In this document: in pieces, positions 4,559 to 44,426 of the stretch
Layout: each line of letters starts with the position of its first letter
Position numbering within the stretch: position 1 is the stretch's first letter
Source of the DNA: Candidatus Omnitrophota bacterium
GTDB lineage: Bacteria; Omnitrophota; Gorgyraeia; Aquiviventales; Aquiviventaceae
Assembly (NCBI GenBank): GCA_016198905.1
Contig: JACQHR010000004.1
Span: forward strand, 3,485 to 67,484
Reading direction: 5' to 3'
DNA: 64,000 nt
Translations under genes and position numbers: made by a program
Notes under the pieces: model-generated
Databases searched by the model: none
What the model was told of the DNA's origin: nothing
The model's input: the letters and a program-made list of their open reading frames with translations, nothing else

Positions 4559-5179
4559 GTGCTGAAGGGCGGCATCGCATGCCTCGCTATGAGTTTGGCG
4601 GTCGCCCTGCCGACGCTGAGTGCCGCGAAGGAGGGCACGATAGACTTGTCCCTTCCGGTGGCGGTCCCTCACGGTCGGATGGAGCAAGCCGGTGTGTCCG
4701 TTGATATCGACGTGCTCGATGCGCAACACACCGTCGACATTTTTGACGTCGATCTCATCAAGAAAGGCGTGCAGCCGGTCATGATCAAGATTCACAATCA
4801 CAGCATGCAGACCTATCGATTTAAGAAATCCGACGTCGACGCGCACTACATTCCCGCCGCCGTGGCGGCAAAGAAGGCGTATGAGAATCCGGTTCGGATT
4901 GGGGGCCGCTTCGTCAGGCGGGCGGTGGGCACGATTCCGCGATGGCTGCTCAATGCACCGAGCGGGATTGCGCGTGAGCATGCGGCCGATCAGCCGCTGT
5001 TGAATCGCGAGATGCAAGCCAGTTTTGTGCGGGGAGAAATCGCGGATGCCGATATCGCGCCCAACGCGACACTCGAAGGATTCCTGTACCTGAAGCCGCT
5101 TCAACCTGGCGTGCATGTCCGTATTCCGCTCTTGAATACGAGCACGCAAGAGCTGCTGATGTTTGATCGCGCCCGATAG
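4559..5179 (+). CDS. Hypothetical exported protein (start uncertain: GTG 4496, GTG 4559 or ATG 4589)
   Basis: ORF 4496..5179. GTG 4559 follows AGAGGA and gives an N-terminal signal-like sequence LKGGIACLAMSLAVALPTLSAAKEG. No recognised domain. Confidence 0.45.
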   Translation: MLKGGIACLAMSLAVALPTLSAAKEGTIDLSLPVAVPHGRMEQAGVSVDIDVLDAQHTVDIFDVDLIKKGVQPVMIKIHNHSMQTYRFKKSDVDAHYIPAAVAAKKAYENPVRIGGRFVRRAVGTIPRWLLNAPSGIAREHAADQPLLNREMQASFVRGEIADADIAPNATLEGFLYLKPLQPGVHVRIPLLNTSTQELLMFDRAR

Positions 5180-5691: not shown

Positions 5692-10194
<4,503 letters not shown>

Positions 10195-10302
10195 AAGAGC
10201 AAGCACGCAGCAGACAGCACACAGCAGTAAGATCGGACACACCTAAGACCGACCACCTGGTACATTCGTTGATCTTCATCGCTCGGGAGCCGTTCGTCTG
10301 CC

Positions 10303-11388
10303 ATGACTGTCACTGAAGCTCAAGTTCTTCAAGCGCTCAAGGTTGTGCAGGATCCTGATCTGAAGCGCGACCTCGTCTCGCTGGGGTTCATCAAGAACGT
10401 CAGCGTGCAGGGCGATCGCGTCAGCTTTGCGATTGAGCTGACGACGCCTGCGTGTCCGGTGCGCGACCTCATGAAGGAAGAGGCGCGTGCCGCGGTCGCA
10501 GCACTGCCCGGCGTCGCACAGGTCGACATCACGATGACCTCGCAGGTACGCACCTCGATCGCCGCGCAGAACGCCGATCGCCTGATTCCGACGATCAAAA
10601 ACGTGATTCCGATTGCCAGCGGGAAGGGCGGCGTGGGCAAATCGACGGTGAGTGCCAATCTCGCCTTAGCACTCGCGCGCACCAGCGCGCGGGTTGGCGT
10701 CATGGATGCGGACGTCTACGGCCCGAGCATCCCGACGATCCTTGGTATCACCGATCAGCCCGAGGTCGATGAGCAGAATCGCATCACGCCCGTCGAGCGC
10801 AGCGGCCTCAAGGTCATGTCGATGGGCTTCTTCATGAAGCCTGAGGAAGCGGTCGTCTGGCGCGGGCCGATGCTACATAAGACCGTTGAGCAATTCCTCG
10901 GCGGCGTGAAGTGGGGTGAGCTCGACTATCTCATCATCGATTTGCCGCCCGGGACCGGCGATGTGCAGCTCTCACTCTGTCAGATGATCCCGATTACGGG
11001 CGCGGTGATTGTCTCGACGCCGCAGGACGTGGCCCTCAACGTTGCGCAAAAAGCGATTGCGATGTTCAAGAAGCTCAACGCGCCGATCCTCGGCGTCATC
11101 GAGAACATGAGCTACTACCTGTGCCCGCACTGCGGCAAGCGTGACGACATCTTTGGGACGGGCGGAGCGAAGCAGATAGCACGGCGATTGGAGATTCCAT
11201 TCCTCGGAGAGATTCCTCTAGCGACACCGATCCGTATCGCCTCGGATGCGGGCAAACCGGTGGTGTTGACCGATCCAACATCGTCGTCGGCAAAGGCGTT
11301 CATTGAAGCCGCCGAGCGCCTCGCCGCGCAAGTCAGCATCCGCGGCATGCAAGGCGAGCTTGCCCCTCAAGTGAAAGTGACATTCTAG
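10303..11388 (+). CDS. apbC: Fe-S cluster carrier ATPase Mrp/ApbC/NBP35 family with N-terminal DUF59/MIP18 domain
   Basis: DUF59-like N-terminus (VLQALKVVQDPDLKRDLVSLGFI...TTPACP). Deviant Walker A IASGKGGVGKST. CPHC cluster-ligand motif. Confidence 0.9.
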   Translation: MTVTEAQVLQALKVVQDPDLKRDLVSLGFIKNVSVQGDRVSFAIELTTPACPVRDLMKEEARAAVAALPGVAQVDITMTSQVRTSIAAQNADRLIPTIKNVIPIASGKGGVGKSTVSANLALALARTSARVGVMDADVYGPSIPTILGITDQPEVDEQNRITPVERSGLKVMSMGFFMKPEEAVVWRGPMLHKTVEQFLGGVKWGELDYLIIDLPPGTGDVQLSLCQMIPITGAVIVSTPQDVALNVAQKAIAMFKKLNAPILGVIENMSYYLCPHCGKRDDIFGTGGAKQIARRLEIPFLGEIPLATPIRIASDAGKPVVLTDPTSSSAKAFIEAAERLAAQVSIRGMQGELAPQVKVTF

Positions 11389-11439: not shown

Positions 11440-11940
11440 ATGGATGCGTTTGACCCGACGGATATCTTTGCTGCGCTCAATGCGGCGCAGGTGAAATATC
11501 TGCTCATCGGGGGTCTTGCGGTGATTTTCCATGGCATTAGGCGGACGACAGGTGACGTGGACCTGTCGGTTCATCTGACGACCGACAACCTCGAACGCCT
11601 CGCGATGGCACTCAGGCACCTTGGCTTTGTCCCTCGGGTGCCGGCGCCAATTGCCGGACTTGCTGATCCCAAGACGCGGCGGATGTGGACGCAACAGCGG
11701 GGCATGAAGGTCTATTCGTTCATTGAGCCTTATGGGATTCCACCAAGGAACATCGATGTGATGGTGGAGCCGTTGAAAGATTTTGAAGCGGTGTATCGAA
11801 GACGCAAGGTGGCTGCCCTGCGGGGTATTCCTGTGCCGCTGATCCCTGTCAAGGAGCTTGCACAGATGAAGCGAAAGGCGGGGCGCCCACAAGATCTTCA
11901 AGATGTGCAGGACTTGCGGCTGGCTGGAAAAATTCCATGA
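11440..11940 (+). CDS. Small nucleotidyltransferase-fold protein (MNT/DUF6036-like)
   Basis: Track ORF 11389..11940 starts 1 nt after the apbC stop. ATG 11440 gives an NTase G-x-G...D-x-D pattern (LLIGGLAVIFHGIRRTTGDVDLSV) and a C-terminal KRKAGRPQDLQDVQDL motif typical of this family. Confidence 0.55.
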   Translation: MDAFDPTDIFAALNAAQVKYLLIGGLAVIFHGIRRTTGDVDLSVHLTTDNLERLAMALRHLGFVPRVPAPIAGLADPKTRRMWTQQRGMKVYSFIEPYGIPPRNIDVMVEPLKDFEAVYRRRKVAALRGIPVPLIPVKELAQMKRKAGRPQDLQDVQDLRLAGKIP

Positions 11941-12137
11941 AGCGCTATCCCCTCGGGTCCTATGAGGAGACACGGCAATTCATGTTCAGACAATTTAGTC
12001 GGCTCACGCCTGATCAGAAATTGGACTGGCTCTCTAGCATGTTGAAGTTTCTTGACACAGTGAATCCTGCCGCACGATGGCGGCGCCTTGGATTGGCGGT
12101 GCCTCGCCGGATCATCAAGCGTCGAAAGAGATCATGA
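11937..12137 (+). CDS. Hypothetical 66-aa protein, translationally coupled to flanking genes
   Basis: ATGA overlap with the upstream gene (11937-11940) and with the downstream DUF971 gene (12134-12137). Basic C-terminus. No recognised motif. Confidence 0.4.
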   Translation: MKRYPLGSYEETRQFMFRQFSRLTPDQKLDWLSSMLKFLDTVNPAARWRRLGLAVPRRIIKRRKRS

Positions 12138-12457
12138 ACCAGACGAGCGCGCCTGTACCGACTGAAATCGGACGGGCGAATCAGCACGATGTGAAGATCA
12201 TTTGGCAGGATGGGCACGAGAGCGTGTATCCGGCGCGCGAGCTGCGGTTGAAGTGTCCGTGCGCCGGCTGCGTCGATGAAATGACCGGAGCGATTCGTAT
12301 CATCGCCACGAGCATCCCGCCGGATGTGCATCCGCTGAAGATCGACCTCATCGGCCGCTATGCGATCACGATCCATTGGTCCGACGGCCACCGCACCGGC
12401 ATTTATGCATTTCAACTCTTGAGAGCGCTCTGTCCATGTTGCGCCGCCAAATCGTAA
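12134..12457 (+). CDS. DUF971 (gamma-butyrobetaine hydroxylase-like N-terminal domain) protein
   Basis: Motifs IIWQDGHESVYPARELRLKCPCAGC and YAITIHWSDGHRTGIY match the DUF971 pattern. ATG 12134 chosen inside track ORF 12077..12457. Confidence 0.7.
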   Translation: MNQTSAPVPTEIGRANQHDVKIIWQDGHESVYPARELRLKCPCAGCVDEMTGAIRIIATSIPPDVHPLKIDLIGRYAITIHWSDGHRTGIYAFQLLRALCPCCAAKS

Positions 12458-12936
12458 TTGGAGCGATTGCGTTGGTGCTCATGGTTGGCAGAATCGTGTC
12501 TGCGCAAGAACCGCCGGTGCGGCCGTGTCAGTCGGAGGACGTCGTTGGCACGTGGACCTTGGTGAGCTTGAAACCCAACATCCCGCCACGCAGCGATGAT
12601 CCAGATTTCTTCCCGCACCAGCTGTGGACCTTCACCGCATCGGGAACAATGCGGATCATGAAGCGGGCCACTCCGTTCAAGGCGGACGAGCTGGGAAAGT
12701 TTATCCATGTGTCGTCACATGAGCCGTCGATGACAACTTCATATCAAGTCTATGCTGAACGAGCTGCATTGGTGATGTCTCCGCAAGGGGCACCGTCTCC
12801 ATATTTGTTCTCCTGCTTGGTGGTCGCACAGGCGCATGAGGCAGCGGGGCTGAAGCCCGGTGACTTATTGCTCGACCTGCGCACGGCAGACGGGCGCGAA
12901 ATCGTTCTAGGTCACCATCTCAGAAAACTGCAGTAA
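12436..12936 (+). CDS. Hypothetical secreted protein
   Basis: ATG 12436 gives a signal peptide MLRRQIVIGAIALVLMVGRIVSAQE. No recognised domain. Confidence 0.5.
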   Translation: MLRRQIVIGAIALVLMVGRIVSAQEPPVRPCQSEDVVGTWTLVSLKPNIPPRSDDPDFFPHQLWTFTASGTMRIMKRATPFKADELGKFIHVSSHEPSMTTSYQVYAERAALVMSPQGAPSPYLFSCLVVAQAHEAAGLKPGDLLLDLRTADGREIVLGHHLRKLQ

Positions 12937-13171
12937 AGTGGTTCAGTGTCATTGAGCAGACGAACGGCTAGGCAGCGCCATTAAGAACATTAGCTCTCTT
13001 GCCATTAATCTTGAAGCTGCAAACTTGGAGCAAGTGGCCAGCACATAAGAGGCGGCCCGCGGCTTGCCTCCCCGGCTCGCCAGTCGTGATTGTCGGGGCG
13101 GGCGGCGCTAGATGACCGTCGGGCCGGGGAGGACGCCTCCGGATTCTCGAGTGACAAAGGAGATGAGAGTG

Positions 13172-13519
13172 ATGCGCATTCGTAAACGATATGTCATGTT
13201 GGTGCTGGGTCTGATGATGTTAGCTGCTCCAGCATTTGGAGCGGAGGGAGAGTCCTTTTATGATAAGCAAGGCGATCACCACTTTGTGCCAAAGGTGGGT
13301 TTCGTGCCAGACGAAGACACGGCAATCAAAATTGCCGAAGCGATCTGGGCTCCAATTTACGGGGAGAGCCTCAATGATGAGCGGCCATTCCATGCCAACC
13401 TGGTTGGGGATATTTGGCATGTCGAAGGATCTCTCCCAGAAGGTATGAGTGGAGGTGTGGCCGAAGCCGAAATTGCCAAGGCGGATGGAAGAATTCTTCG
13501 AGTCTCGCATGGGAAATAG
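13172..13519 (+). CDS. NTF2-fold (YbbC/YhhH-type immunity-protein-like) small exported protein
   Basis: AAGGAG lies 9 nt upstream of ATG 13172. Signal peptide present. Motifs DEDTAIKIAEAIWAPIYGE, GDIWHVEGSL, GGVAEAEIAKADGRILRVSHGK resemble the NTF2-fold immunity family. Confidence 0.5.
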   Translation: MRIRKRYVMLVLGLMMLAAPAFGAEGESFYDKQGDHHFVPKVGFVPDEDTAIKIAEAIWAPIYGESLNDERPFHANLVGDIWHVEGSLPEGMSGGVAEAEIAKADGRILRVSHGK

Positions 13520-13544: not shown

Positions 13545-13708
13545 GCTCCGTCGAAAACCTCTTCCGATCGCTATCGGGGCCACGGGGCCTGCCCCGGCGC
13601 CACCCTGCGCCGTCCTCGCCCAGCGACTATCGCGCTGGTTCTGCGGGCGACGCAGGGGACCCGTCGCCGGGTCACCCGTGGCCCACGAGCGAGCTTTTCG
13701 ACAGAGCA
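13545..13708. repeat. GC-rich palindromic element copy B, flanked by an 11-bp direct repeat
   Basis: Imperfect terminal inverted repeats GCTCCGTCGAAAA (13545-13557) and TTTTCGACAGAGC (13695-13707). Identical GGGACGGTTCT at 13534-13544 and 13709-13719. The interior shares blocks (GCGCCACCC, CGTCCTCGCC, ACTATCG, GGGCGA) with the copy at 33324-33443. Confidence 0.6.
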
Positions 13709-13776: not shown

Positions 13777-15096
13777 ATGTCTGAGCGAATCAATTTTGAT
13801 TACGGAGCAAGCACGCCGATCGTGCCCGACGTGAAGCAGGCGATGATGGCGGCCCTCGATGCGGGGGGCAACCCGTCGTCGGTGCATCAGCGAGGGCAGC
13901 AGGCCAAACGCCTCCTTACGCAGGCACGCAAGCAGGTCGCGTCACTGATTAACGCGAAGCCTGAGGAACTCTATTTCACTTCGTGCGGCACTGAGTCGAA
14001 CAATTGGGCGCTGCGCGGGCTCTTCGCTGCGAACACCCCGCCTGCCCTTCGGCAACTGTCGGGGCAGGAGCGCAAGGGCAAGCATTTGATTGTTTCCGCC
14101 ATCGAGCATCCATCCATCTCCTTGATCGCTCGCCGGCTCGAGCTCGACGGCGCATATGTGACAATTCTTCCGGTTGATCGCGAAGGATGCGTGTCGCCCG
14201 GCGATCTCAAAGCTGCGATGAAACCCGATACCGTCCTCGTCTCGATCATGCTGGCCAACGGGGAAGTCGGCACGATCGAGCCGATTCACGAGCTCGCGGC
14301 CATCGCGCATGAGCAGGGAGCACTGTTTCATACCGATGCGATCGCGGCCGTCGGATCGATTCCCGTCGATGTGAAGGCGCTCAACGTCGATGCGCTCAGC
14401 CTTGCCGCGGATCAGTTCGGCGGGCCGCAAGGGGCTGCGGCGCTGTTTGTGCGCGAAGGTGTGCGCATCTTGCCGCTGCTCGAAGGCGGCGGGCAAGAAG
14501 TTGGCGCGCGCTCCGGCACCGAGTCACTGCCGGCCATTGTCGGCATGGGTATCGCAGCTGAGATCGCGCAACAAGGTCTTCCGGAGCGTATCGAGCAGCT
14601 GAGCCAACTGCGGGATCGACTGCAGGACGGACTTAATCAACGTATTGAGGGATTACGGATCAATGGTCCATCTGATATTCGGCGGGTGGCGCGGCGCGGG
14701 GCTCCCCAGCCGCCCGCAGCCGACGACGCCGATAGTGCGGCGCGGCGAGGACGGATGGGGTGCGCCGCGACAGGACCCGCCGAAGGCGATGATGAGATGC
14801 ACAGACGACTACCGCACAATCTCCATGTGTGCATTGACGGTGTGGCGAGCGAAGCACTGGTCCTCGGATTGGATCATGCCGGCATCGCCGTCGGTCTTGG
14901 CTCGGCCTGCAACTCGAAAGCGATGCGCCCATCCCATGTGCTGAAGGCGATGGGACTGACCGATGAGCAAGCCAAAGGCGCGCTCGTGTTGACCGTGGGC
15001 GAGCCGACGACCGAGGACGACATTGATCGCGCATTGGAAATCATCCCAGTCGTGGTACAGCGCTTGCGAAACGTTACTGCATTGACAGCTCGGTAG
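13777..15096 (+). CDS. Class V aminotransferase / cysteine desulfurase (NifS/IscS)-like protein with degenerate PLP site and an internal repeat insertion
   Basis: Colinear with IscS/NifS (TSCGTESNN, SAIEHPS, GGGQEVGARSGTE, GLGSACNS active-site Cys loop). The SxHK PLP-lysine motif reads LAADQ, and DATQS reads DAIAA. Confidence 0.8.
   Translation: MSERINFDYGASTPIVPDVKQAMMAALDAGGNPSSVHQRGQQAKRLLTQARKQVASLINAKPEELYFTSCGTESNNWALRGLFAANTPPALRQLSGQERKGKHLIVSAIEHPSISLIARRLELDGAYVTILPVDREGCVSPGDLKAAMKPDTVLVSIMLANGEVGTIEPIHELAAIAHEQGALFHTDAIAAVGSIPVDVKALNVDALSLAADQFGGPQGAAALFVREGVRILPLLEGGGQEVGARSGTESLPAIVGMGIAAEIAQQGLPERIEQLSQLRDRLQDGLNQRIEGLRINGPSDIRRVARRGAPQPPAADDADSAARRGRMGCAATGPAEGDDEMHRRLPHNLHVCIDGVASEALVLGLDHAGIAVGLGSACNSKAMRPSHVLKAMGLTDEQAKGALVLTVGEPTTEDDIDRALEIIPVVVQRLRNVTALTAR
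14679..14783. repeat. GC-rich palindromic element copy C, inserted in frame (105 bp) within the NifS-like CDS
   Basis: Termini TCGGCGGGT (14679-14687) and ACCCGCCGA (14775-14783) are reverse complements. A 36-nt core at 14718-14753 is the exact reverse complement of 33362-33397. Confidence 0.7.
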
Positions 15097-17429: not shown

Positions 17430-18950
17430 ATGCGGATTACGGTTCGGGCGGGGCAGGTAGGGCACATACGTCAGGGGCTTCAGGTCTATGGGGCGCTGGA
17501 GGGTGATCGGCATCCGGAGCGGTTGCTGCCGGCCTCATCGGCACGTGATCAACAGCTCAAACAGCTTGTGACCGGCTCGGGATTCCGCGGCGCTCCCAAC
17601 GAGATCGTGCTCTTGCCGAAGGGCACACAGTGGGTGCTGGTGGTCGGTCTTGGGAAAGCCAAAGAGCTTTCCATCGAAAAGATACGGCAGTGTGCCGGCA
17701 CGGCGGCCCGCACCGCGCGCGCTCAGGGCTTTACGGCGGTGACGCTGCCAGTGATCGTCGAGCGCGGTTTGGGGCCGGTCGAGGTGATGGCGCAAGCCAG
17801 CGCCGAAGGGGCGCTGCTGGGGCTGTACCGCTATGACAAGCTCAAGCAGCTCTCCAAACATGAGCAGAGCCGGCGCATCGAGGCGATCACGCTCGTCGTC
17901 GAACAATCGGGTGATCTCGGCGCGGCCAAGCACGGCGCGCACAAGGGGCAGGTGATCGCCGAGGCGGTGTCGCTCGCGCGCGACCTCATCAACGGCCCAT
18001 CGAATCTCGTGACCCCGACAGTCCTCGCAGACGAAGCGAGAAAGATCGCCAAACAGTTTCGGTTGAAGTGCACCGTCATTCCTTTCGCGCGCTTGAAGCA
18101 GTTGGGATTTGGCGGCATCGTCGGTGTCGCGCAGGGAGCGTCGCACCCGGCGCAGTTTATCGTTCTCGAATACAAGCCGGCGCCTCGGCCCGCCGGTCGT
18201 AATCGCCGGGGCGGGCGCGCGACCAAGACGTATGCGCTCTGCGGCAAAGGTATTACGTTTGACACCGGGGGGATCAACATCAAGCCCTCGGCGAAGATGG
18301 AGCTGATGAAGTACGACATGGCGGGTGCTGCGGCGGTGCTCGGCACCATAAAAGCGGCAGCGACGCTGAAATTGCCGGTGCGCATCATCGGGATCATTGC
18401 GGCGACGGACAACATGCCCTCGGGCAGCGCGCAGAAGCCGGGCGATGTCTTGACGACGCTCTCCGGCAAGACCGTCGAGGTGCTCAACACCGACGCCGAA
18501 GGGCGATTGGTACTCACCGATTGTTTGCATTACGCCAAGCGCTTCAAGCCGGACTACACGATCGATCTGGCGACGCTGACCGGCGCGTGCGTGATCGCAC
18601 TGGGCAGCGAAGCGGTCGGGTTGATGGGCAACGATGAGAAACTTGCCGAGCGCATCACGAAGGCCGGTGAGCAGACGCACGAGCGCGTCTGGCGCTTGCC
18701 GATGTGGGAGGAATATGGCGGCCAGCTCATCAAGTCGGACATCGCGGATCTGCGCAACGTGACGAACACCGGCGAGGCGGGAACCATCACGGCGGCAAAA
18801 TTCCTCGAAGCCTTCGTTGAGGGCATGCACTGGGCGCATCTTGATATCGCCGGCACCGCGTGGAGTGACAAGCCAAAGCCGTACATCCCGAAAGGGGCCG
18901 TCGGCATCGGCGTGCGGCTCCTCATCGAATTGATGGAGAAGGGAAAGTAA
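17430..18950 (+). CDS. pepA: Leucyl aminopeptidase (M17 family)
   Basis: AAGGAGG RBS. Motifs GKGITFDTGGINIKP, YDMAGAAAV, NTDAEGRLVLTD and DLATLTGA are the M17 active-site signatures. Confidence 0.9.
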   Translation: MRITVRAGQVGHIRQGLQVYGALEGDRHPERLLPASSARDQQLKQLVTGSGFRGAPNEIVLLPKGTQWVLVVGLGKAKELSIEKIRQCAGTAARTARAQGFTAVTLPVIVERGLGPVEVMAQASAEGALLGLYRYDKLKQLSKHEQSRRIEAITLVVEQSGDLGAAKHGAHKGQVIAEAVSLARDLINGPSNLVTPTVLADEARKIAKQFRLKCTVIPFARLKQLGFGGIVGVAQGASHPAQFIVLEYKPAPRPAGRNRRGGRATKTYALCGKGITFDTGGINIKPSAKMELMKYDMAGAAAVLGTIKAAATLKLPVRIIGIIAATDNMPSGSAQKPGDVLTTLSGKTVEVLNTDAEGRLVLTDCLHYAKRFKPDYTIDLATLTGACVIALGSEAVGLMGNDEKLAERITKAGEQTHERVWRLPMWEEYGGQLIKSDIADLRNVTNTGEAGTITAAKFLEAFVEGMHWAHLDIAGTAWSDKPKPYIPKGAVGIGVRLLIELMEKGK

Positions 18951-25125: not shown

Positions 25126-25193
25126 TTCAGCACACAGCACCCAGCAGACAGCACACAGCCGTGCACTAGCTGTTGAAAGCGAGCGAGAACACC

Positions 25194-30616: not shown

Positions 30617-30690
30617 GCGCCCGTAGCTCAATCGGATAGAGCGCTTGGCTTCGAACCAAGAGGCAGCAGGTTCGAATCCTGCCGGGCGCG
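30617..30690 (+). tRNA. tRNA-Arg (anticodon UCG)
   Basis: Manual cloverleaf. Acceptor GCGCCCG/CGGGCGC, D arm GCTC/GAGC, anticodon stem CTTGG/CCAAG with loop CTTCGAA, T arm GCAGG-TTCGAAT-CCTGC. 74 nt, no encoded CCA. Confidence 0.85.
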
Positions 30691-30705
30691 CGCTTAATCA
30701 TTAGT

Positions 30706-30834
30706 GGCAGGATTCGAAGGGAGCCGCGACGTTAGCTCCACGTCGGTGCGACGGACAGGAGCACCGACCTTCCTTGGGAGCGGCGGGTGCCTACCCGGCA
30801 CGAGCGTAGCGAGTGAAGGAAGGCGAATCCTGCC
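30706..30834. repeat. Structured insert bounded by 11-bp inverted repeats that mimic the tRNA-Arg T arm
   Basis: GGCAGGATTCG (30706-30716) and CGAATCCTGCC (30824-30834) are perfect reverse complements. The interior has several short GC hairpins. It lies between two copies of the tRNA-Arg 3' segment. Confidence 0.5.
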
Positions 30835-30925
30835 GGGCGCGCTCTTAACAATAGTTTCGAGTTCCGAGTTTCGTGTTCCGAGTTCACATGGAACGTGAAA
30901 CGTTGAACGTGAAACTTGTTATGAC

Positions 30926-30998
30926 GGGCCGCTAGCTCAATTGGTAGAGCAGGGGACTCTTAATCCCAAGGTTGATGGTTCGAAGCCATCGCGGCCCA
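30926..30998 (+). tRNA. tRNA-Lys (anticodon CUU)
   Basis: Manual cloverleaf. Acceptor GGGCCGC/GCGGCCC, anticodon loop CTCTTAA, T arm GATGG-TTCGAAG-CCATC. 73 nt. Confidence 0.8.
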
Positions 30999-31033
30999 TC
31001 GTTTGACTCAAGAGACGTGTGATGCCCCATTTC

Positions 31034-31115
31034 GGGCGGATGGCGGAACTGGCAGACGCGACGGCCTTAGGAGCCGTTGGGGCAACCCTTGGAGGTTCAA
31101 ATCCTCTTCCGCCCA
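31034..31115 (+). tRNA. tRNA-Leu (anticodon UAG), long variable arm
   Basis: Acceptor GGGCGGA/TCCGCCC, anticodon stem ACGGC/GCCGT with loop CTTAGGA, long variable arm, T arm GGAGG-TTCAAAT-CCTCT. 82 nt. Confidence 0.8.
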
Positions 31116-31312
31116 TCTTTGTTTACAGGGAAGAGGATTTGCAAGGAGCGTCCTATTGAAATTAATAACAGACTGGCCCGTACGCTGTTGATCATCTTGC
31201 GTACAGGAAAGGGAGACAAGGAGTGTCATAATTACGTGGACGCGACGATAGGAGGGAAAACCTGGGTTTTCCCTCCTATGGAGCGAGCGATTAGATTTCG
31301 TGAGCGAGCGAC

Positions 31313-31387
31313 GCGGGTGTAGCTCAGCGGTAGAGCATCACGTTGCCAACGTGAGGGTCGTGGGTTCAAGTCCCATCACCCGCTCCA
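31313..31387 (+). tRNA. tRNA-Gly (anticodon GCC), CCA encoded
   Basis: Acceptor GCGGGTG/CACCCGC, anticodon stem TCACG/CGTGA with loop TTGCCAA, T arm GTGGG-TTCAAGT-CCCAT, followed by TCCA. Confidence 0.85.
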
Positions 31388-31515: not shown

Positions 31516-31986
31516 ATGAGTATTATGGAGTTCTTGGATGACCGGGCGGTCAGTATCGATGTCAAAACGCAGCAGAAGGAAGACGTCATTCGCGAGCTGG
31601 TCGGCTTGCTCGTGAAGGCCGGCTCGATTAAGGACAAGGATGTCCATAAACTCGTGCAGATTCTGCTCAACCGCGAAGCGCTCGGGTCGACAGGCATTGG
31701 GCAAGGGGTGGCGATTCCCCATGGCAAGTCCGACTGCGTCGACCGCCTCATTGCGGCTTTCGCCGTCTCAAAAAATGGCGTCAGCTTCGATTCCCTCGAC
31801 GGGGAGCCGGTGCATCTGTTCTTCCTCCTGGTGGCTCCGGAGGATTCCGCCGGGCCGCACCTCAAAGCGCTGGCGCGGATTTCCCGCCTGCTGAAAGACA
31901 AACATTTCCGCGATAGCCTGCAGGCGGCCAAGGACGAAAAAACCCTCCTCAAGATCATCCGGGACGAAGACGAGCGTCGCCATTGA
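31516..31986 (+). CDS. ptsN: PTS EIIA-Ntr (nitrogen regulatory IIA, fructose/mannitol-type IIA fold)
   Basis: Motif REALGSTGIGQGVAIPHGK contains the phosphorylatable His. 156 aa, typical PtsN size. Confidence 0.85.
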   Translation: MSIMEFLDDRAVSIDVKTQQKEDVIRELVGLLVKAGSIKDKDVHKLVQILLNREALGSTGIGQGVAIPHGKSDCVDRLIAAFAVSKNGVSFDSLDGEPVHLFFLLVAPEDSAGPHLKALARISRLLKDKHFRDSLQAAKDEKTLLKIIRDEDERRH

Positions 31987-32033
31987 GGAGGAGCAAGCGG
32001 GGTGACGTCGTCACGCCGCATGCGCCCACATCG

Positions 32034-33302
32034 ATGCGATTCTTGAAGTGGTTCTACCCAGGTATGCGGGTCAAGCGATGGCTCTCCCTCGCCATCGTGG
32101 GGGTCTTCCTCTTTGGGATCGGCTCCGCCCTCCTGCCAGTCGAAGGCGGCATTCTCCTGCGCCTGACGAGTCTGGTCATGCTCCTCTCCGGATTGCTCGC
32201 CATCGTGTTCGGCATCGGGTTGATGGGCCGCTCGCTCCTCGAAGTCGTGACTCCCGCGCATACGCAGGATCTCGTGGAGCTCGTCTTTCAGCGGCGCCAC
32301 CTCGAGAAGGGGCCCAAAGTGGTCGTCATCGGCGGCGGCACCGGACTCTCGACGCTGCTACACGGCCTGAAACACTACACGACCAATCTCACCGCGATCG
32401 TGACGGTGGCGGATGACGGCGGCAGCTCGGGCCGCCTGCGCCAGGAGTTCGACATGCTCCCGCCCGGCGATATCCGCAACTGTCTCGTGGCCCTGGCCGA
32501 TACCGAGCCGCTCATGCAGCGCTTGTTCCAATACCGCTTTGCGGAGGACTCCGCCCTTAAAGGCCATAACTTCGGCAACCTCTTCATTACGGCGATGACG
32601 AAAATCACCGGAGATTTCGAGCGGGCGGTCCAGGCCTCCAGCAAGGTGCTGGCGATTCGCGGGCGCGTAGTACCCTCGACCAACACGAAGGTGCGGCTGG
32701 CGGCGGAGCACGACGACGGCAGCATCACGCTGGGCGAAACGAACATTTCGCAGGCGGAAGCGCCCATTCGCCGGATTTACCTCGACCCGCAGGGCTGCCA
32801 GCCGACGGTGAGCGCGCTCGAAGCGATCGCGGAGGCCAACGCCATCATCTTCGGTCCGGGCTCGCTCTACACGAGCATCATCCCGAATCTGCTGGTGGAC
32901 CGCATGGTCGATGCGATCGTCCAATCGAAGGCGATGAAAATCTATGTCTGCAATGTCATGACGCAATCGCGCGAGACGCGTGGGTATAAAGCAAGCGACC
33001 ACGTGCAGGCGCTGGTGACGCATACGAATCCCGGCATCGTGCAGGTCTGCATTGTGAACACCGAACCCGTGCCGCCGGCGCTGTTGGAGCGCTATCGCCA
33101 AGAGGAGGCGTTTCCGGTGGAGCCGGACATCGACGGCATTCGCAAGCTCGGCTACCAGGTGGTGGCGGAGAACATCATCAGTCTCGAGAACTACGTCCGT
33201 CACGATCCCGACAAAATCTCGAAGCTTGTCATTCAACTCATCGTCGGTGCGCGCCGCCCGTTGGCGCCCACCGTTTCGGCTGACGCACAGCCCGCAACAT
33301 GA
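32034..33302 (+). CDS. yvcK: YvcK / CofD-like gluconeogenesis factor family protein with N-terminal membrane segment
   Basis: VVVIGGGTGLSTLLHGLK, VTVADDGGSSGRLR and GPGSLYTSIIPNLLV motifs. ATG 32034 chosen over TTG 31983. Two hydrophobic helices precede the domain. Confidence 0.8.
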   Translation: MRFLKWFYPGMRVKRWLSLAIVGVFLFGIGSALLPVEGGILLRLTSLVMLLSGLLAIVFGIGLMGRSLLEVVTPAHTQDLVELVFQRRHLEKGPKVVVIGGGTGLSTLLHGLKHYTTNLTAIVTVADDGGSSGRLRQEFDMLPPGDIRNCLVALADTEPLMQRLFQYRFAEDSALKGHNFGNLFITAMTKITGDFERAVQASSKVLAIRGRVVPSTNTKVRLAAEHDDGSITLGETNISQAEAPIRRIYLDPQGCQPTVSALEAIAEANAIIFGPGSLYTSIIPNLLVDRMVDAIVQSKAMKIYVCNVMTQSRETRGYKASDHVQALVTHTNPGIVQVCIVNTEPVPPALLERYRQEEAFPVEPDIDGIRKLGYQVVAENIISLENYVRHDPDKISKLVIQLIVGARRPLAPTVSADAQPAT

Positions 33303-33323
33303 ACAATCGCATCGTGTACTATG

Positions 33324-33443
33324 GTGACGTTCACGGGTCCTGCCGCTGCGCCACCCCACCTCGTCCTCGCCGCGCCGCACTATCGGCGTCGTCGGCTCCG
33401 GGCGAGGTAGGGGCCTCGGCTCCGCGTCACCCGCGAACGTCAC
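33324..33443. repeat. GC-rich palindromic element copy G (yvcK/GH57 intergenic)
   Basis: Terminal inverted repeats GTGACGTTCACGGGT (33324-33338) and ACCCGCGAACGTCAC (33429-33443). The core 33362-33397 is the reverse complement of 14718-14753. Confidence 0.7.
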
Positions 33444-33465
33444 TAAGACATGTGACGACGTCGAC

Positions 33466-35610
33466 ATGAATCCGTCCGTGACGTTCTTGATGGCGTTTCA
33501 TTGTCATCAGCCGGTCGGCAATTTTGGATTTGTGTTCGAGGAGGCCTACGCGAAGGCGTACGACCCGTTCCTCGGCGTGCTCGAGCGGCATCCGGACGTG
33601 CGGCTGGCGCTGCATTACAGCGGCTGCCTCCTCGACTGGCTGCTTGAGCATCGGCCGGCGTTCGTTCAGCGCCTGCGCGCCCTCGTCACGCGCGGTCAGA
33701 TCGAGCTGCTCGCCTCCGGCTACTACGAGCCGATCCTCCCGCTCATTCCGGAAGCGGATCGGCAGGGACAAATCGCGCAGATGCGGCACGCGCTGCGCGC
33801 GCACTGCCGCGCCGAGGCTACGGGATTATGGCTGACCGAGCGCGTCTGGGAGCCGGACCTGCCGTCGACACTAGCCCAGGCCGGGATCCGCTATACGATG
33901 GTCGATACGAATCAGTTTGCGGGCGCGCGGCCGTGGCTGCCGGCTCGCGTGCAGGTGCACGATGACGCGTTTTGGGATTTGCTGGGCAGCTACGAGACGG
34001 AATATGCCGGCGCCTCGGTGCGGTTGTTTCCGGCGTCGAAACGGCTGCGCTATTCGATGCCGTTTCAGCCGGTGCCGCAGACGATCGACTTTCTGAAGCG
34101 GCTCAAGCGAGACGAGCCCTTCGACTCGCGTTGCTCGCTCAGGGCGAATGGTGAGCCCGTCGAACCAGAGCCGGTCGCCATCACGTTTGCCGACGATGGA
34201 GAGAAATTCGGGCTGTGGCCGAAGACCTACGCATGGGTGTACGAAGAAGGCTGGCTCGACCAGTTCTTCACGGCCCTTGAGCGGGAGCGTGCGTGGCTGC
34301 GTACCACGACGTTTGCCGACTACGCGCACACGACGGCGCCTGACGGGACCGTCTATTTGCCGTGCGGCAGCTACGAGGAAATGCTCGAGTGGTCGGGCGG
34401 CTATTTCAGGAACTTCTTTACAAAATATCCCGAAGCGAACGCGATGCTCCAAAAAATGCTGCATGTGAGTCAAGCGATTGCGCAGAGCAAGCAAGCAGGG
34501 CTTCAGGCCACAGGCTCCAAGCGTCAGGCAAAAAACAAAAGGCCTGCGGCTGGTGGCCTGCAGCTGGAAGCAAAACGGCGCGAAGCATTACTTCGCGACG
34601 CGGAGCAAGCGCTCTACACCGGCCAGTGCAATTGCGCCTACTGGCACGGGGTGTTTGGCGGGCTCTACCTGTCGCATCTGCGGCGGGCTGTCTATGCGCA
34701 TCTGATCAGCGCCGAGCAGCTCTTGAACCAGGTTGAAGCGATCGGGCCGTCCATCACAATCTTCGATGCCGATGGCGACGGCCGTGACGACGTGAGCCTG
34801 AAGACGGCGACGACCGGGCTCGTGATCGATCCTGCCGACGGCGGCACGATCACGGAGTGGAGCCTCTATGGCGCCAACGTGAACCTCCTCGATACGCTCG
34901 CGCGCCGGCCCGAGCCGTACCATGACAAGCTCCGCAGCAAGCAGCCTGAGCGTGCGGCGACCTCGAGCGGCCAGCAAACCCCAGCCAGCATCCATGACTT
35001 GGTGGCGGTGAAGGAGGAGAATCTCGCCTCGCACCTCATCTATGATGACCATCGGCGCAGCGCCTTTCTTGACTATGCCTTGGAGGGGATGCCGACCCTC
35101 GAGCGGGTGGTGCGCTCGACGTGGGGTGAGCGTCGGCTGTGGTCGGGAGGGTCGTTTGCGCTTGAGAAGCCTCCGACACGCGGCGCGCGGAAGGCGACCA
35201 TGCTTGATGTCTCGATGGTGCGGTTGCTTGAAACAGGATCGATTCGAAAATCCATTCGTCTGCATGCGAAGACGTCCGTCGTCGAGTGCGGCTATCGCCT
35301 CGAAGGCTTGGATGTACCGGTCATCGCGTTGGAGTGGAACGTGTCGCTGCGCGACGAGCGCTATCTGGCGACACCACGGGAGTATGCCGAAGCGACGCAA
35401 TTCGGCCTCGAGGACCCTCACGCGGGTGTCGCACTGACGCTGTCGATGGATCGCCCGGCGCGGCTGCTTCATTTTCCCATTGAAACGGTGTCCGAGTCCG
35501 AGCACGGGCTTGAGCGGACCTATCAAGGATTGTGCATCGTCTGCCTCTGGACCCTGGAAGGGGCCCGGTCGTGGGAGACGCGACTGCAGTGGAGTGCGAC
35601 GACACGCTGA
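33466..35610 (+). CDS. Glycoside hydrolase family 57 alpha-glucan-active enzyme (amylase / glucanotransferase type)
   Basis: N-terminus FHCHQPVGNF, LALHYSGCLLDWL and ELLASGYYEPILPLIP are GH57 signature regions. 714 aa with C-terminal DUF1925/1926-like extension. Confidence 0.8.
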   Translation: MNPSVTFLMAFHCHQPVGNFGFVFEEAYAKAYDPFLGVLERHPDVRLALHYSGCLLDWLLEHRPAFVQRLRALVTRGQIELLASGYYEPILPLIPEADRQGQIAQMRHALRAHCRAEATGLWLTERVWEPDLPSTLAQAGIRYTMVDTNQFAGARPWLPARVQVHDDAFWDLLGSYETEYAGASVRLFPASKRLRYSMPFQPVPQTIDFLKRLKRDEPFDSRCSLRANGEPVEPEPVAITFADDGEKFGLWPKTYAWVYEEGWLDQFFTALERERAWLRTTTFADYAHTTAPDGTVYLPCGSYEEMLEWSGGYFRNFFTKYPEANAMLQKMLHVSQAIAQSKQAGLQATGSKRQAKNKRPAAGGLQLEAKRREALLRDAEQALYTGQCNCAYWHGVFGGLYLSHLRRAVYAHLISAEQLLNQVEAIGPSITIFDADGDGRDDVSLKTATTGLVIDPADGGTITEWSLYGANVNLLDTLARRPEPYHDKLRSKQPERAATSSGQQTPASIHDLVAVKEENLASHLIYDDHRRSAFLDYALEGMPTLERVVRSTWGERRLWSGGSFALEKPPTRGARKATMLDVSMVRLLETGSIRKSIRLHAKTSVVECGYRLEGLDVPVIALEWNVSLRDERYLATPREYAEATQFGLEDPHAGVALTLSMDRPARLLHFPIETVSESEHGLERTYQGLCIVCLWTLEGARSWETRLQWSATTR

Positions 35611-44026: not shown

Positions 44027-44426
44027 CGAAGAACCAGCAGCGTAACATGGTGTCTGCAGAGTGTCAACGAAGGGCCACCCCTTATGATGGTCACGTGTGG
44101 TGGGTCCTGCGCCCGCCCACCCCAGCGATAATGATCGGCGGTCCAGGGAAGCCGTGAGGCGACGACCCGCGGCGTCACCCACCCAAACTTCACCACTACC
44201 CCATATCATACTCTGTTGCTCTGAGTACGCCGCTGGAGCCACACGTCGTAGCCTATCGGAAGCGTTTTGAGTGATTTCACCGCCGCTCAGATGTAGAATA
44301 TGGAACAATATGGAATCGAAAGGAATGTGCGGGTACGAGTCCTTGCTACAAGACGGATATGAATGACCATCATTGAGACTGCATTCAAGATTTTGCCATC
44401 ACATAGCAATCGACCACCCATACTAG

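Follow-up and report, generated by a model that had tools for sequence, protein, structure and literature searches.

How does a gene for a conserved enzyme come to hold a GC-rich palindrome that is read in frame with the rest of its protein? The question is raised by a gene of Candidatus Omnitrophota bacterium that encodes an IscS/NifS-like class-V aminotransferase and is interrupted, between two conserved blocks, by a palindromic segment. We studied this segment within the whole 64-kb stretch of DNA in which it lies, hereafter the window; all bare coordinates are window positions, and L and P numbers denote fetched loci and database relatives of the host protein, respectively. The segment is probably one copy of a non-autonomous, GC-rich palindromic repeat family of Omnitrophota that behaves selfishly, in the manner of REPINs (hairpin-forming doublets of REPs, which are palindromic extragenic repeats) or of MITEs (miniature transposable elements with inverted repeats), and that is translated here as a tolerated loop. 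The features on which the argument turns are the following.

13777-15096, + strand: host gene, an IscS/NifS-like class-V aminotransferase of 439 residues (open reading frame (ORF) list, Pfam, Protein Data Bank (PDB), synteny)
14671-14792 (122 nt), + strand: in-gene copy of the palindromic repeat family, in frame (covariance model R1, cmsearch 116 bits, E = 3.5e-25)
14668-14808, + strand: entire region by which the gene departs from empty-site orthologues (47 codons, NG anchor to LPHN anchor)
33321-33445, - strand: intergenic copy of the R1 family (cmsearch 111.4 bits; exact 36-mer)

The element and its repeat family

The in-gene element is bounded by an inverted repeat, TCGGCGGGT (14679-14687) and ACCCGCCGA (14775-14783), whose two halves are reverse complements, as the original prediction had stated. 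The perfect terminal inverted repeat measures 10 bp, with TTCGGCGGGT at 14678-14687 and ACCCGCCGAA at 14775-14784, and spans 107 nt. The segment had been described as 105 nt, or 35 codons. There are indeed 35 in-frame codons, which encode RRVARRGAPQPPAADDADSAARRGRMGCAATGPAE (RRVARRG...GPAE), but they occupy 14680-14784, one base to the right, and the boundaries were drawn too narrowly, since the element extends over about 122 nt and the net insertion is 42 codons. Because the palindrome itself is 107 nt long, an argument from 105 being a multiple of three depends on where the limits are set. The conserved core of the family runs in this copy from CGGGTG (14683) to GGACCCG (14779). The segment has a G+C content of 81%, versus 61% for the window, and folds as one long single hairpin with a minimum free energy of -70.7 kcal/mol (z = -3.1). 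A tryptic peptide predicted from the insert is GAPQPPAADDADSAAR.

The element has a close relative elsewhere in the window. Its central 36 nt (14718-14753) are the exact reverse complement of intergenic positions 33362-33397, a match claimed earlier and now confirmed: none of 100 dinucleotide shuffles gave any such match, even with three mismatches allowed, and zero are expected by chance. The earlier claim that the flanks of both copies align further also holds. Ungapped, the match reported by the repeat finder reaches 43 nt at 98% identity, and a gapped alignment covers 14678-14779 (about 105 nt) with a core identity of 0.86. The intergenic copy forms a palindrome of 120 nt (33324-33443) with an outer stem of GTGACGTTCG and TGAACGTCAC, a folding energy of -74.5 / -78 kcal/mol and a z-score of -4.9, and its similarity to the in-gene copy survives both gapped alignment and the covariance model (111 and 116 bits for the intergenic and in-gene copies). 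It nearly fills a 163-nt spacer between a CofD-family gene (31983-33302, + strand) and a GH57/4-alpha-glucanotransferase gene (33466-35610, + strand). A canonical intrinsic terminator was considered at this position and rejected, as no T-run follows the hairpin.

The two copies belong to a family that sequence searches reveal directly. We scanned genomes, metagenomes and viral contigs with a 23-base pattern taken from the conserved right half, and built the covariance model R1 from seven seed copies. The pattern matched 35 stretches in species-representative genomes, mostly metagenome-assembled genomes (MAGs) of Omnitrophota; these Omnitrophota-type matches include bins labelled 'Planctomycetales' that carry the orthologous gene, and a few further matches came from Vicinamibacterales, Nitrospira and actinobacteria. 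At least 120 stretches were found in JGI metagenomes, and none in viral contigs. R1 confirmed nearly all of the Omnitrophota MAG and metagenome matches at 70-137 bits, giving more than 100 copies. Family members are 100-130 nt long (modal length 123 nt), with about 75-80% G+C.

All copies share the ends CGGGT and ACCCG and the conserved core CGGGTGRCGCGG ... GCCGACGACGCCG-loop-GCGGCGCGGCGAGGAC ... CAGGACCCG, and the hairpin's apical third hardly varies among 69 copies drawn from many genomes. Beyond the core the stem continues for another 1-23 bp in sequence that is specific to each locus and always self-complementary. Among 67 distinct copies, 96.9% of pair cells hold standard pairs, compared with 83.9% after shuffling and 35-45% with slid partners. 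Both sides vary in compensation at 21 of the 38 pairs in this alignment, which was fitted to the R1 model and thereby favours the structure; an independent RNAalifold analysis of the seven seed copies found 13 of 38 pairs compensated. Pair counts were 2347 Watson-Crick, 39 G-T, 18 A-C and 58 other mismatches. With Watson-Crick pairs so dominant, the palindrome is almost strand-symmetric. Known RNA families do not account for it: Rfam at gathering thresholds returned only four tRNAs in the whole window, and a permissive Rfam search on the intergenic copy gave chance-level matches only.

Outside Omnitrophota, weaker full-length R1 matches were found in a Nitrospira MAG (L033 6685-6803, 52 bits) and in two Vicinamibacterales MAGs (L035 2223-2372 and L027 2887-3017, 47 and 33 bits); these could reflect a wider family, horizontal spread or mis-binned contigs. 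Two more Vicinamibacterales loci, L018 and L038, matched weakly and in part (28.6 and 25 bits), and the Streptomyces locus L011 gave only a non-significant one elsewhere in the locus (15.6 bits, E = 0.65). The remaining pattern matches from outside Omnitrophota gave no R1 match.

Many metagenome copies are cut off at contig ends (L082, L101, L103, L083, L050, L087, L066, L153, L140, L149, L157, L138 and L142), so the repeat seems to break short-read assemblies of these organisms.

Insertion, reading frame and in-frame hosts

The host protein matches Pfam PF00266 (7.9e-55), and its best match among solved structures is PDB 9wep (3.4e-89). Database protein P0001, from a 106-kb contig, is 100% identical to it and is annotated by NCBI as 'MAG: cysteine desulfurase [Candidatus Omnitrophica bacterium]'. 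Among database relatives, the 120 best are all of Omnitrophota type, 58-75% identical, and most are 385-390 residues long. FeS_assembly_P, GBBH-like and PhosphMutase neighbours are conserved at orthologous loci.

Comparison with these relatives shows directly that the segment was inserted. Solved IscS structures align with the host protein in two blocks (query residues 6-297 and 343-435) that skip the insert and are joined by three residues, and in a 36-sequence alignment of orthologues the majority reads NGSW(T/S)-(S/A)RLPHNLHV at the insertion point. The segment had been placed outside the usual IscS/NifS alignment, and both the solved structures and most of the 385-390-residue orthologues do lack it; far from being universal among orthologues, it is not ancestral. 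We compared the DNA of nine orthologous genes that share the neighbours named above. Between the NG and LPHN anchors the window gene has 47 codons, versus five (SWSSR) in the empty orthologue L010, a net insertion of 42 codons. Five further orthologues (L001, L002, L004, L005 and L006) are filled, with 41-50 codons between the anchors and DNA that aligns base for base with the window element. L008 and L009 retain the left arm only, GAC.TTCGACGGGTG(GCGCGG), and are deletion remnants in which the frame is preserved.

The six filled copies at this turn, which we call site F, share position, orientation, outer-stem type (GAC.TTCG(R)) and flanking codons (P-x-D-phi-R-R-V). Because site, orientation and outer-stem type are common to all six, one old ancestral insertion would be the simplest history. 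A neighbour-joining tree built from host columns only, though poorly resolved, groups the filled, remnant and overwritten states in a single clade; nearly all members of the other clade are empty.

The reading frame is maintained across these copies, although frameshifted genes are less likely to surface in a protein search in the first place. The six differ by indels of 1, 2 and 9 nt, and in every one both arms keep a common phase. The centre is read in differing phases (AADDADSAARRGRMG in the window, AADDARRLRRGEDGW in L001, PQPTTPIVRRGEDSV in L006), with each shift compensated before the right arm, and the frame switches internally, for example PPAADDA versus PQPTTP and RRGRMG versus RRGEDGW. 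Such compensated indels are what selection on the overall frame, without selection on the peptide, would produce. No peptide is conserved in one frame: orthologous copies switch frame, and other hosts use other frames and the opposite strand. A copy has on average 1.2 frames without stops on the model strand and 1.9 on the opposite one, and these open frames make read-through easy. The in-gene segment is, on this evidence, probably translated.

The position of the insert in the protein also appears permissive. The original prediction had proposed structure modelling to look for a surface loop, and an AlphaFold2 model based on the 36-sequence alignment places residues 300-346, with a predicted local distance difference test (pLDDT) score below 50 and no secondary structure, between two strands (residues 293-296 and 348-353). 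The insert thus appears as a floppy loop at a structurally permissive surface position.

Two observations concern the host protein itself and a neighbour of its orthologues. At residues 212-213 (14410-14415) the pyridoxal phosphate (PLP)-binding lysine motif S-x-H-K ('sahkmygpkg' in 9wep) is replaced by A-D-Q in the window protein, and the position reads N-Q in nearly all of the 36 aligned orthologues; the catalytic-cysteine loop GSAC is invariant among the aligned IscS-like orthologues. With the lysine motif replaced, members of this IscS-like clade may not be conventional PLP-dependent cysteine desulfurases. Beside the orthologous locus in L007, a GTP cyclohydrolase I gene (11713-13368) encodes 551 residues with internal PT-HINT/LAGLIDADG matches, which suggests an intein; the versions in L002, L009 and L010, of 204-206 residues, lack it.

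Across the family, most copies have no ORF running through them, and they often fill short spacers directly beside start codons. Of 96 copies sorted by a composition-based gene heuristic, 11 fell inside genes and 29 in spacers of co-directional genes; divergent spacers took 13 and convergent ones 7, and 36 stayed unclassified. Manual inspection suggested that two of the 11 'inside' calls lie upstream of the true start, and it added four in-frame copies that had been missed (the window gene copy, L029, L044 and L123). About 85-90% of the classified copies lie outside genes, and roughly one in eight to ten is intragenic. The pairing of an in-gene with an intergenic copy in the original prediction was borne out, although it missed that the family is mainly intergenic.

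Copies are seen in frame in the following hosts.

IscS-like turn (site F): six genomes
A different IscS-like loop (site E), reverse orientation: L012
MiaB-like methylthiotransferase, just before RIRFTTSHP: L041 926-1048 (+), L044 130-252 (-), L151 5194-5316 (-), another frame
PMT_2 glycosyltransferase: L084
Last ~44 residues (C-terminal tail) of a sirohaem-synthase-like protein: L029

Since R1 also occurs in frame in the MiaB-like and PMT_2 proteins, in the sirohaem-synthase tail and at a second IscS site, in-frame occurrence is general in this lineage. At the MiaB-like site the same codon position holds both orientations, with differing outer stems and frames, and over the aligned stretch L041 and L044 have mostly identical flanking MiaB DNA (about 85% by eye), which indicates re-insertion, inversion or overwriting at one site. 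The IscS-like orthologues of the 36-sequence alignment themselves carry inserts at six or more positions, P0074 at sites A and D. Every such insert for which DNA was compared (P0074 left out) forms a hairpin. They include a GCCTGCCTGCGCC... hairpin at a second site in L007 (7506-8771), an R1-like element whose interior differs, at a third site in L006 (183-1541), and, in the very turn studied here, an unrelated perfect hairpin in L166 (3001-4218; GGTGTCAGACACTTT...AAAGTGTCTGACACC).

In L017, an element at 4780-4903 is followed directly, in one open frame with it, by a prepilin N-terminal methylation motif (RGLTLVELVIAIALAG). This pilin-like gene may owe its leader peptide or start region to the element.

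The history we propose for the window gene would run as follows. R1 copies are long imperfect hairpins that carry no gene, have no orientation preference and are found mostly between genes. With frames kept open by high G+C content, a copy that lands in phase at a tolerant position of a protein would be read through. In the ancestor of one IscS-like clade, a copy would have landed in the tight turn that joins two beta-strands a little upstream of the catalytic-cysteine loop, and would since have been inherited and translated as a disordered loop of 41-50 residues rich in Arg, Gly, Ala and Pro. Selection on the host protein would keep the overall frame only, leaving the peptide free to change and even to switch frame.

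Conservation of the element and alternative explanations

Several points weigh against this history. One is the conservation of the DNA. Across the six filled orthologues, identity is 0.77 for the host protein, 0.74 for the host DNA and 0.52 at third codon positions, versus 0.85 (range 0.76-0.93) for the element core. A neutral, passive insert should have decayed like the silent sites; on a single old insertion, the element would have changed several-fold slower than they did. No target-site duplication was seen beside the palindrome ends in 63 copies, where the flanks extend the palindrome instead, and no clean pair of filled and empty sites at high identity was seen. No transposase or REP-associated tyrosine transposase (RAYT) was found by phmmer among 4,914 ORFs of at least 90 residues in about 950 kb of loci that carry the element, a weak test made with an IS200 TnpA query. 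All-versus-all clustering of neighbouring ORFs, likewise a weak test, yielded only groups of host synteny, MiaB and permeases, and none in which a transposase recurred. The AlphaFold model, made from 36 aligned sequences, reaches moderate quality (mean pLDDT 70.8), and that the segment is translated is something we infer from the open frame. The mobility of R1, for its part, is suggested by its distribution.

The excess of DNA conservation in the gene is thus not accounted for by the proposed history on its own. Recent co-transfer of the element with its flanks, or homing by recombination, was considered and rejected, as third-position identity in the 20 codons on either side of the element (0.44 and 0.53) is no higher than in the remainder of the gene. 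Candidate causes are selection on the hairpin, gene conversion from other copies or template switching from arm to arm, and repeated overwriting. Gene conversion or template switching would also explain why wobble intermediates are nearly absent and why the palindromic extensions are locus-specific. Palindrome-driven template switching that repairs and extends the arms is one possibility, and would make the hairpin a DNA structure that maintains itself without selection.

The strongest alternative, which we regard as possible but unlikely, is that the element serves two ends: the hairpin, as a structured DNA or RNA element within coding sequence, would itself be under purifying selection and kept for a function of the nucleic acid, and the encoded loop would be merely tolerated, its peptide free. 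Candidate functions are a protein-binding DNA cruciform or single-stranded DNA hairpin, an RNase III or mRNA-stability site, and a translation pause between domains. If true, such selection would explain at once the 85% versus about 50% identity, the compensatory pairing and the invariance of the apex across genomes and possibly phyla. The identity values speak for it, the element's 0.85 standing above the 0.52 of third positions and the whole-gene value of 0.74 while the immediate flanks are not elevated, and so does the near-invariant apical third across 69 copies. Compensatory changes occur even among copies alike in site, orientation and outer stem (A:T to G:C, in either direction, at pair 12/122, and C:G to T:A in the outer stem), and R1 matches of 25-52 bits extend to Nitrospira and Vicinamibacterales MAGs. 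Yet in L007, L008, L009, P0005 and P0009 the gene persists with its element lost or scrambled, so the element is dispensable, and template switching or gene conversion could preserve pairing without selection. The 29 copies in co-directional spacers show no orientation bias (13 along and 16 against transcription) and in-gene copies lie both ways, which argues against a strand-specific RNA role; with G-T and A-C mismatches also nearly symmetric, such a role was dropped as unsupported.

More doubtful is a history in which the site was repeatedly re-invaded or overwritten, so that the IscS copies are young through site-specific re-insertion or short-tract gene conversion. This would fit the MiaB-like site, with its opposite orientations, different outer stems and frames in flanks that are mostly identical, as well as the unrelated hairpins that the IscS turn carries elsewhere (the GGTGTCAGACAC hairpin of L166, and P0021, P0046 and P0005). 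It would also fit the intergenic window copy, which is 0.94 identical to the L005 gene copy and only 0.86 to the window's own gene copy. Against it, the six site-F copies agree in position, orientation, outer stem and flanking codons, as if from one event; the window shows no sign of homogenisation within the genome; and the insertion sites share no target motif.

Removal of the segment ahead of the protein's synthesis or use, as an intron, an intein or a bypassed stretch (as in T4 gene 60 or mitochondrial 'byp' elements), is very improbable. A stable hairpin in coding sequence is typical of bypass elements, and insertion between conserved blocks is usual for inteins and introns. Every filled orthologue, however, keeps the frame and the absence of stops through compensating indels, which would be needless if the segment were skipped, and removal at the RNA level is unlikely because six independent orthologues hold the frame open by compensating 1-nt indels. 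Neither the sequence nor Rfam searches revealed an intron, intein or Rfam signature at the segment, its 35-47 Arg, Gly, Ala and Pro residues are too short and without intein blocks, and the R1 family is mostly intergenic.

There is next to no chance that the segment is an ordinary lineage-specific low-complexity loop or an assembly artefact with an incidental intergenic resemblance, for although GC-rich genomes often carry Arg/Ala/Gly/Pro-rich loops and MAG assemblies can mis-join at repeats, the exact 36-mer and 86% identity over about 100 nt have zero expected by chance, the same DNA stands at the same codon in independent ENA, JGI and NCBI assemblies, and the homology is at the DNA level across reading frames.

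Known systems and further features of the window

An inserted, translated copy of a mobile palindromic family, the reading we prefer, has precedents in other bacteria. Rickettsia palindromic elements (RPEs) are hairpin repeats of about 100-150 bp found both between genes and in frame in unrelated housekeeping genes, which they do not destroy (Ogata et al. 2000, 2002, summarised in PMC10969869); PMC10969869 describes ten families, restricted to Rickettsia and encoding a conserved peptide, with nearly half of the copies intragenic in some families. The original prediction had proposed an in-frame palindrome insertion of this kind in another lineage and with another repeat family, and the several unrelated in-frame hosts support it. 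R1 is like RPEs in being a palindromic family of about 100-150 bp that occurs between genes and in frame within unrelated genes, where its peptide is carried if the fold tolerates it. RPEs are AT-rich. R1, set apart from them by description, belongs to Omnitrophota rather than Alphaproteobacteria and has 75-80% G+C, so that sequence homology between the two is unlikely; moreover, only about one in eight to ten R1 copies is intragenic and no encoded peptide is conserved. R1 is a new palindromic repeat family that behaves like RPEs, a kind of element already known. For Omnitrophota, a literature search on Omnitrophica with 'palindromic' gave CRISPR-related mentions only and no description of such elements.

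In anatomy and genomic behaviour R1 is closest to REPs and REPINs. These are GC-rich imperfect palindromes of about 70-110 nt or more that form hairpins in single-stranded DNA or RNA and are mobilised by RAYT (Bertels & Rainey 2011, PMC3116915; PMC3337134), and they are described as extragenic, mainly from Pseudomonas and enterobacteria (PMC3116915; PMC3337134). R1 likewise is a multi-copy, mostly extragenic GC-rich hairpin with no target-site duplication and a long-lived family sequence. It differs in occurring in frame within genes as well, and in being one continuous hairpin with a conserved apex, whereas a REPIN has two conserved REPs around a variable spacer. REPINs go with a cognate single-copy RAYT gene, encoding a Y1 HUH transposase, that the repeats usually flank; none was found beside R1 in the DNA sampled, the search being the weak test described above.

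Intragenic MITEs are also known from bacteria, among them ERIC, QMITE1 of Coxiella and those of Anabaena (PMC10969869, PMC5896051, PMC3184786). Like these, R1 is small, non-coding, bounded by terminal inverted repeats, without a transposase ORF, multi-copy and occasionally fused in frame to ORFs. The classical MITE definition nevertheless fails on target-site duplication, no parent insertion sequence with matching ends was identified in the 64-kb window and 8-kb snippets, and an outermost stem that is locus-specific yet self-complementary over 1-23 bp is unexpected for cut-and-paste MITEs. GC-rich palindromic clusters and 'byp' elements of yeast mitochondria also invade protein-coding genes, and byp elements disrupt the frame, with ribosomes hopping over them. 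R1 shares with byp the GC-rich hairpin in coding genes; unlike byp, it keeps the frame, and read-through is the simplest reading. Integron attC sites were rejected, as R1 has a conserved centre and variable ends, the opposite arrangement, and its copies are dispersed at 13.6, 14.7 and 33.3 kb with no array.

Reports of hairpin repeats settling in frame in essential genes at high frequency have so far come mainly from Rickettsia. If R1 is read as proposed, this would also be common in a candidate phylum that is free-living or episymbiotic and has GC-rich genomes. For MAG annotation, unexplained low-complexity loops of 10-50 residues may be repeat insertions, and new surface loops could come about through such insertion. 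These loci also offer a natural experiment that could separate selection on DNA or RNA structure from selection on protein, since one site can have the same DNA read in more than one frame and orientation.

Two further features of the window lie in or next to the host gene.

13571-13690, - strand: third, more diverged R1 copy (cmsearch 49.9 bits, E = 3.4e-9, full model length)
14035-14067, + strand: small in-frame insert of 11 codons, TPPALRQLSGQ (36-sequence alignment, columns 167-177)

The third copy sits between an Imm-NTF2-2 gene (13112-13519) and the start codon of the IscS-like gene at 13777, so one copy lies inside this gene and another in its leader or promoter region. It appears as a long single hairpin in a window-wide fold scan, with termini CGGGTGAC... 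and ...GGCCCCG and a palindromic outer stem of GTGGGCCA and TGGCCC. Two more R1-model matches, at 44088-44194 and 18555-18632, were not significant (E = 0.35-0.42) and were dropped.

The small insert is common to orthologues P0002 and P0005 only within the 36-sequence alignment. It contains an inverted repeat, CCTGCCC (14041-14047) and GGGCAGG (14062-14068), that forms a 33-nt hairpin, and it belongs to a different, shorter hairpin element. In the AlphaFold2 model the residues of this mini-insert (88-94) likewise have pLDDT below 50 and no secondary structure.

The R1 model matches none of the other stable hairpins and short direct repeats of the window. Unusually stable hairpins lie at 9831-9960 and 10371-10500 (z about -4 after G+C correction). 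A 27-mer, AGCACGCAGCAGACAGCACACAGCAGT, is repeated directly at 10202-10228 and 25136-25162 with 93% identity, and a 25-mer at 30673-30697 and 30824-30848 with 96% identity, the latter within a cluster of four tRNA genes (30617-31384).

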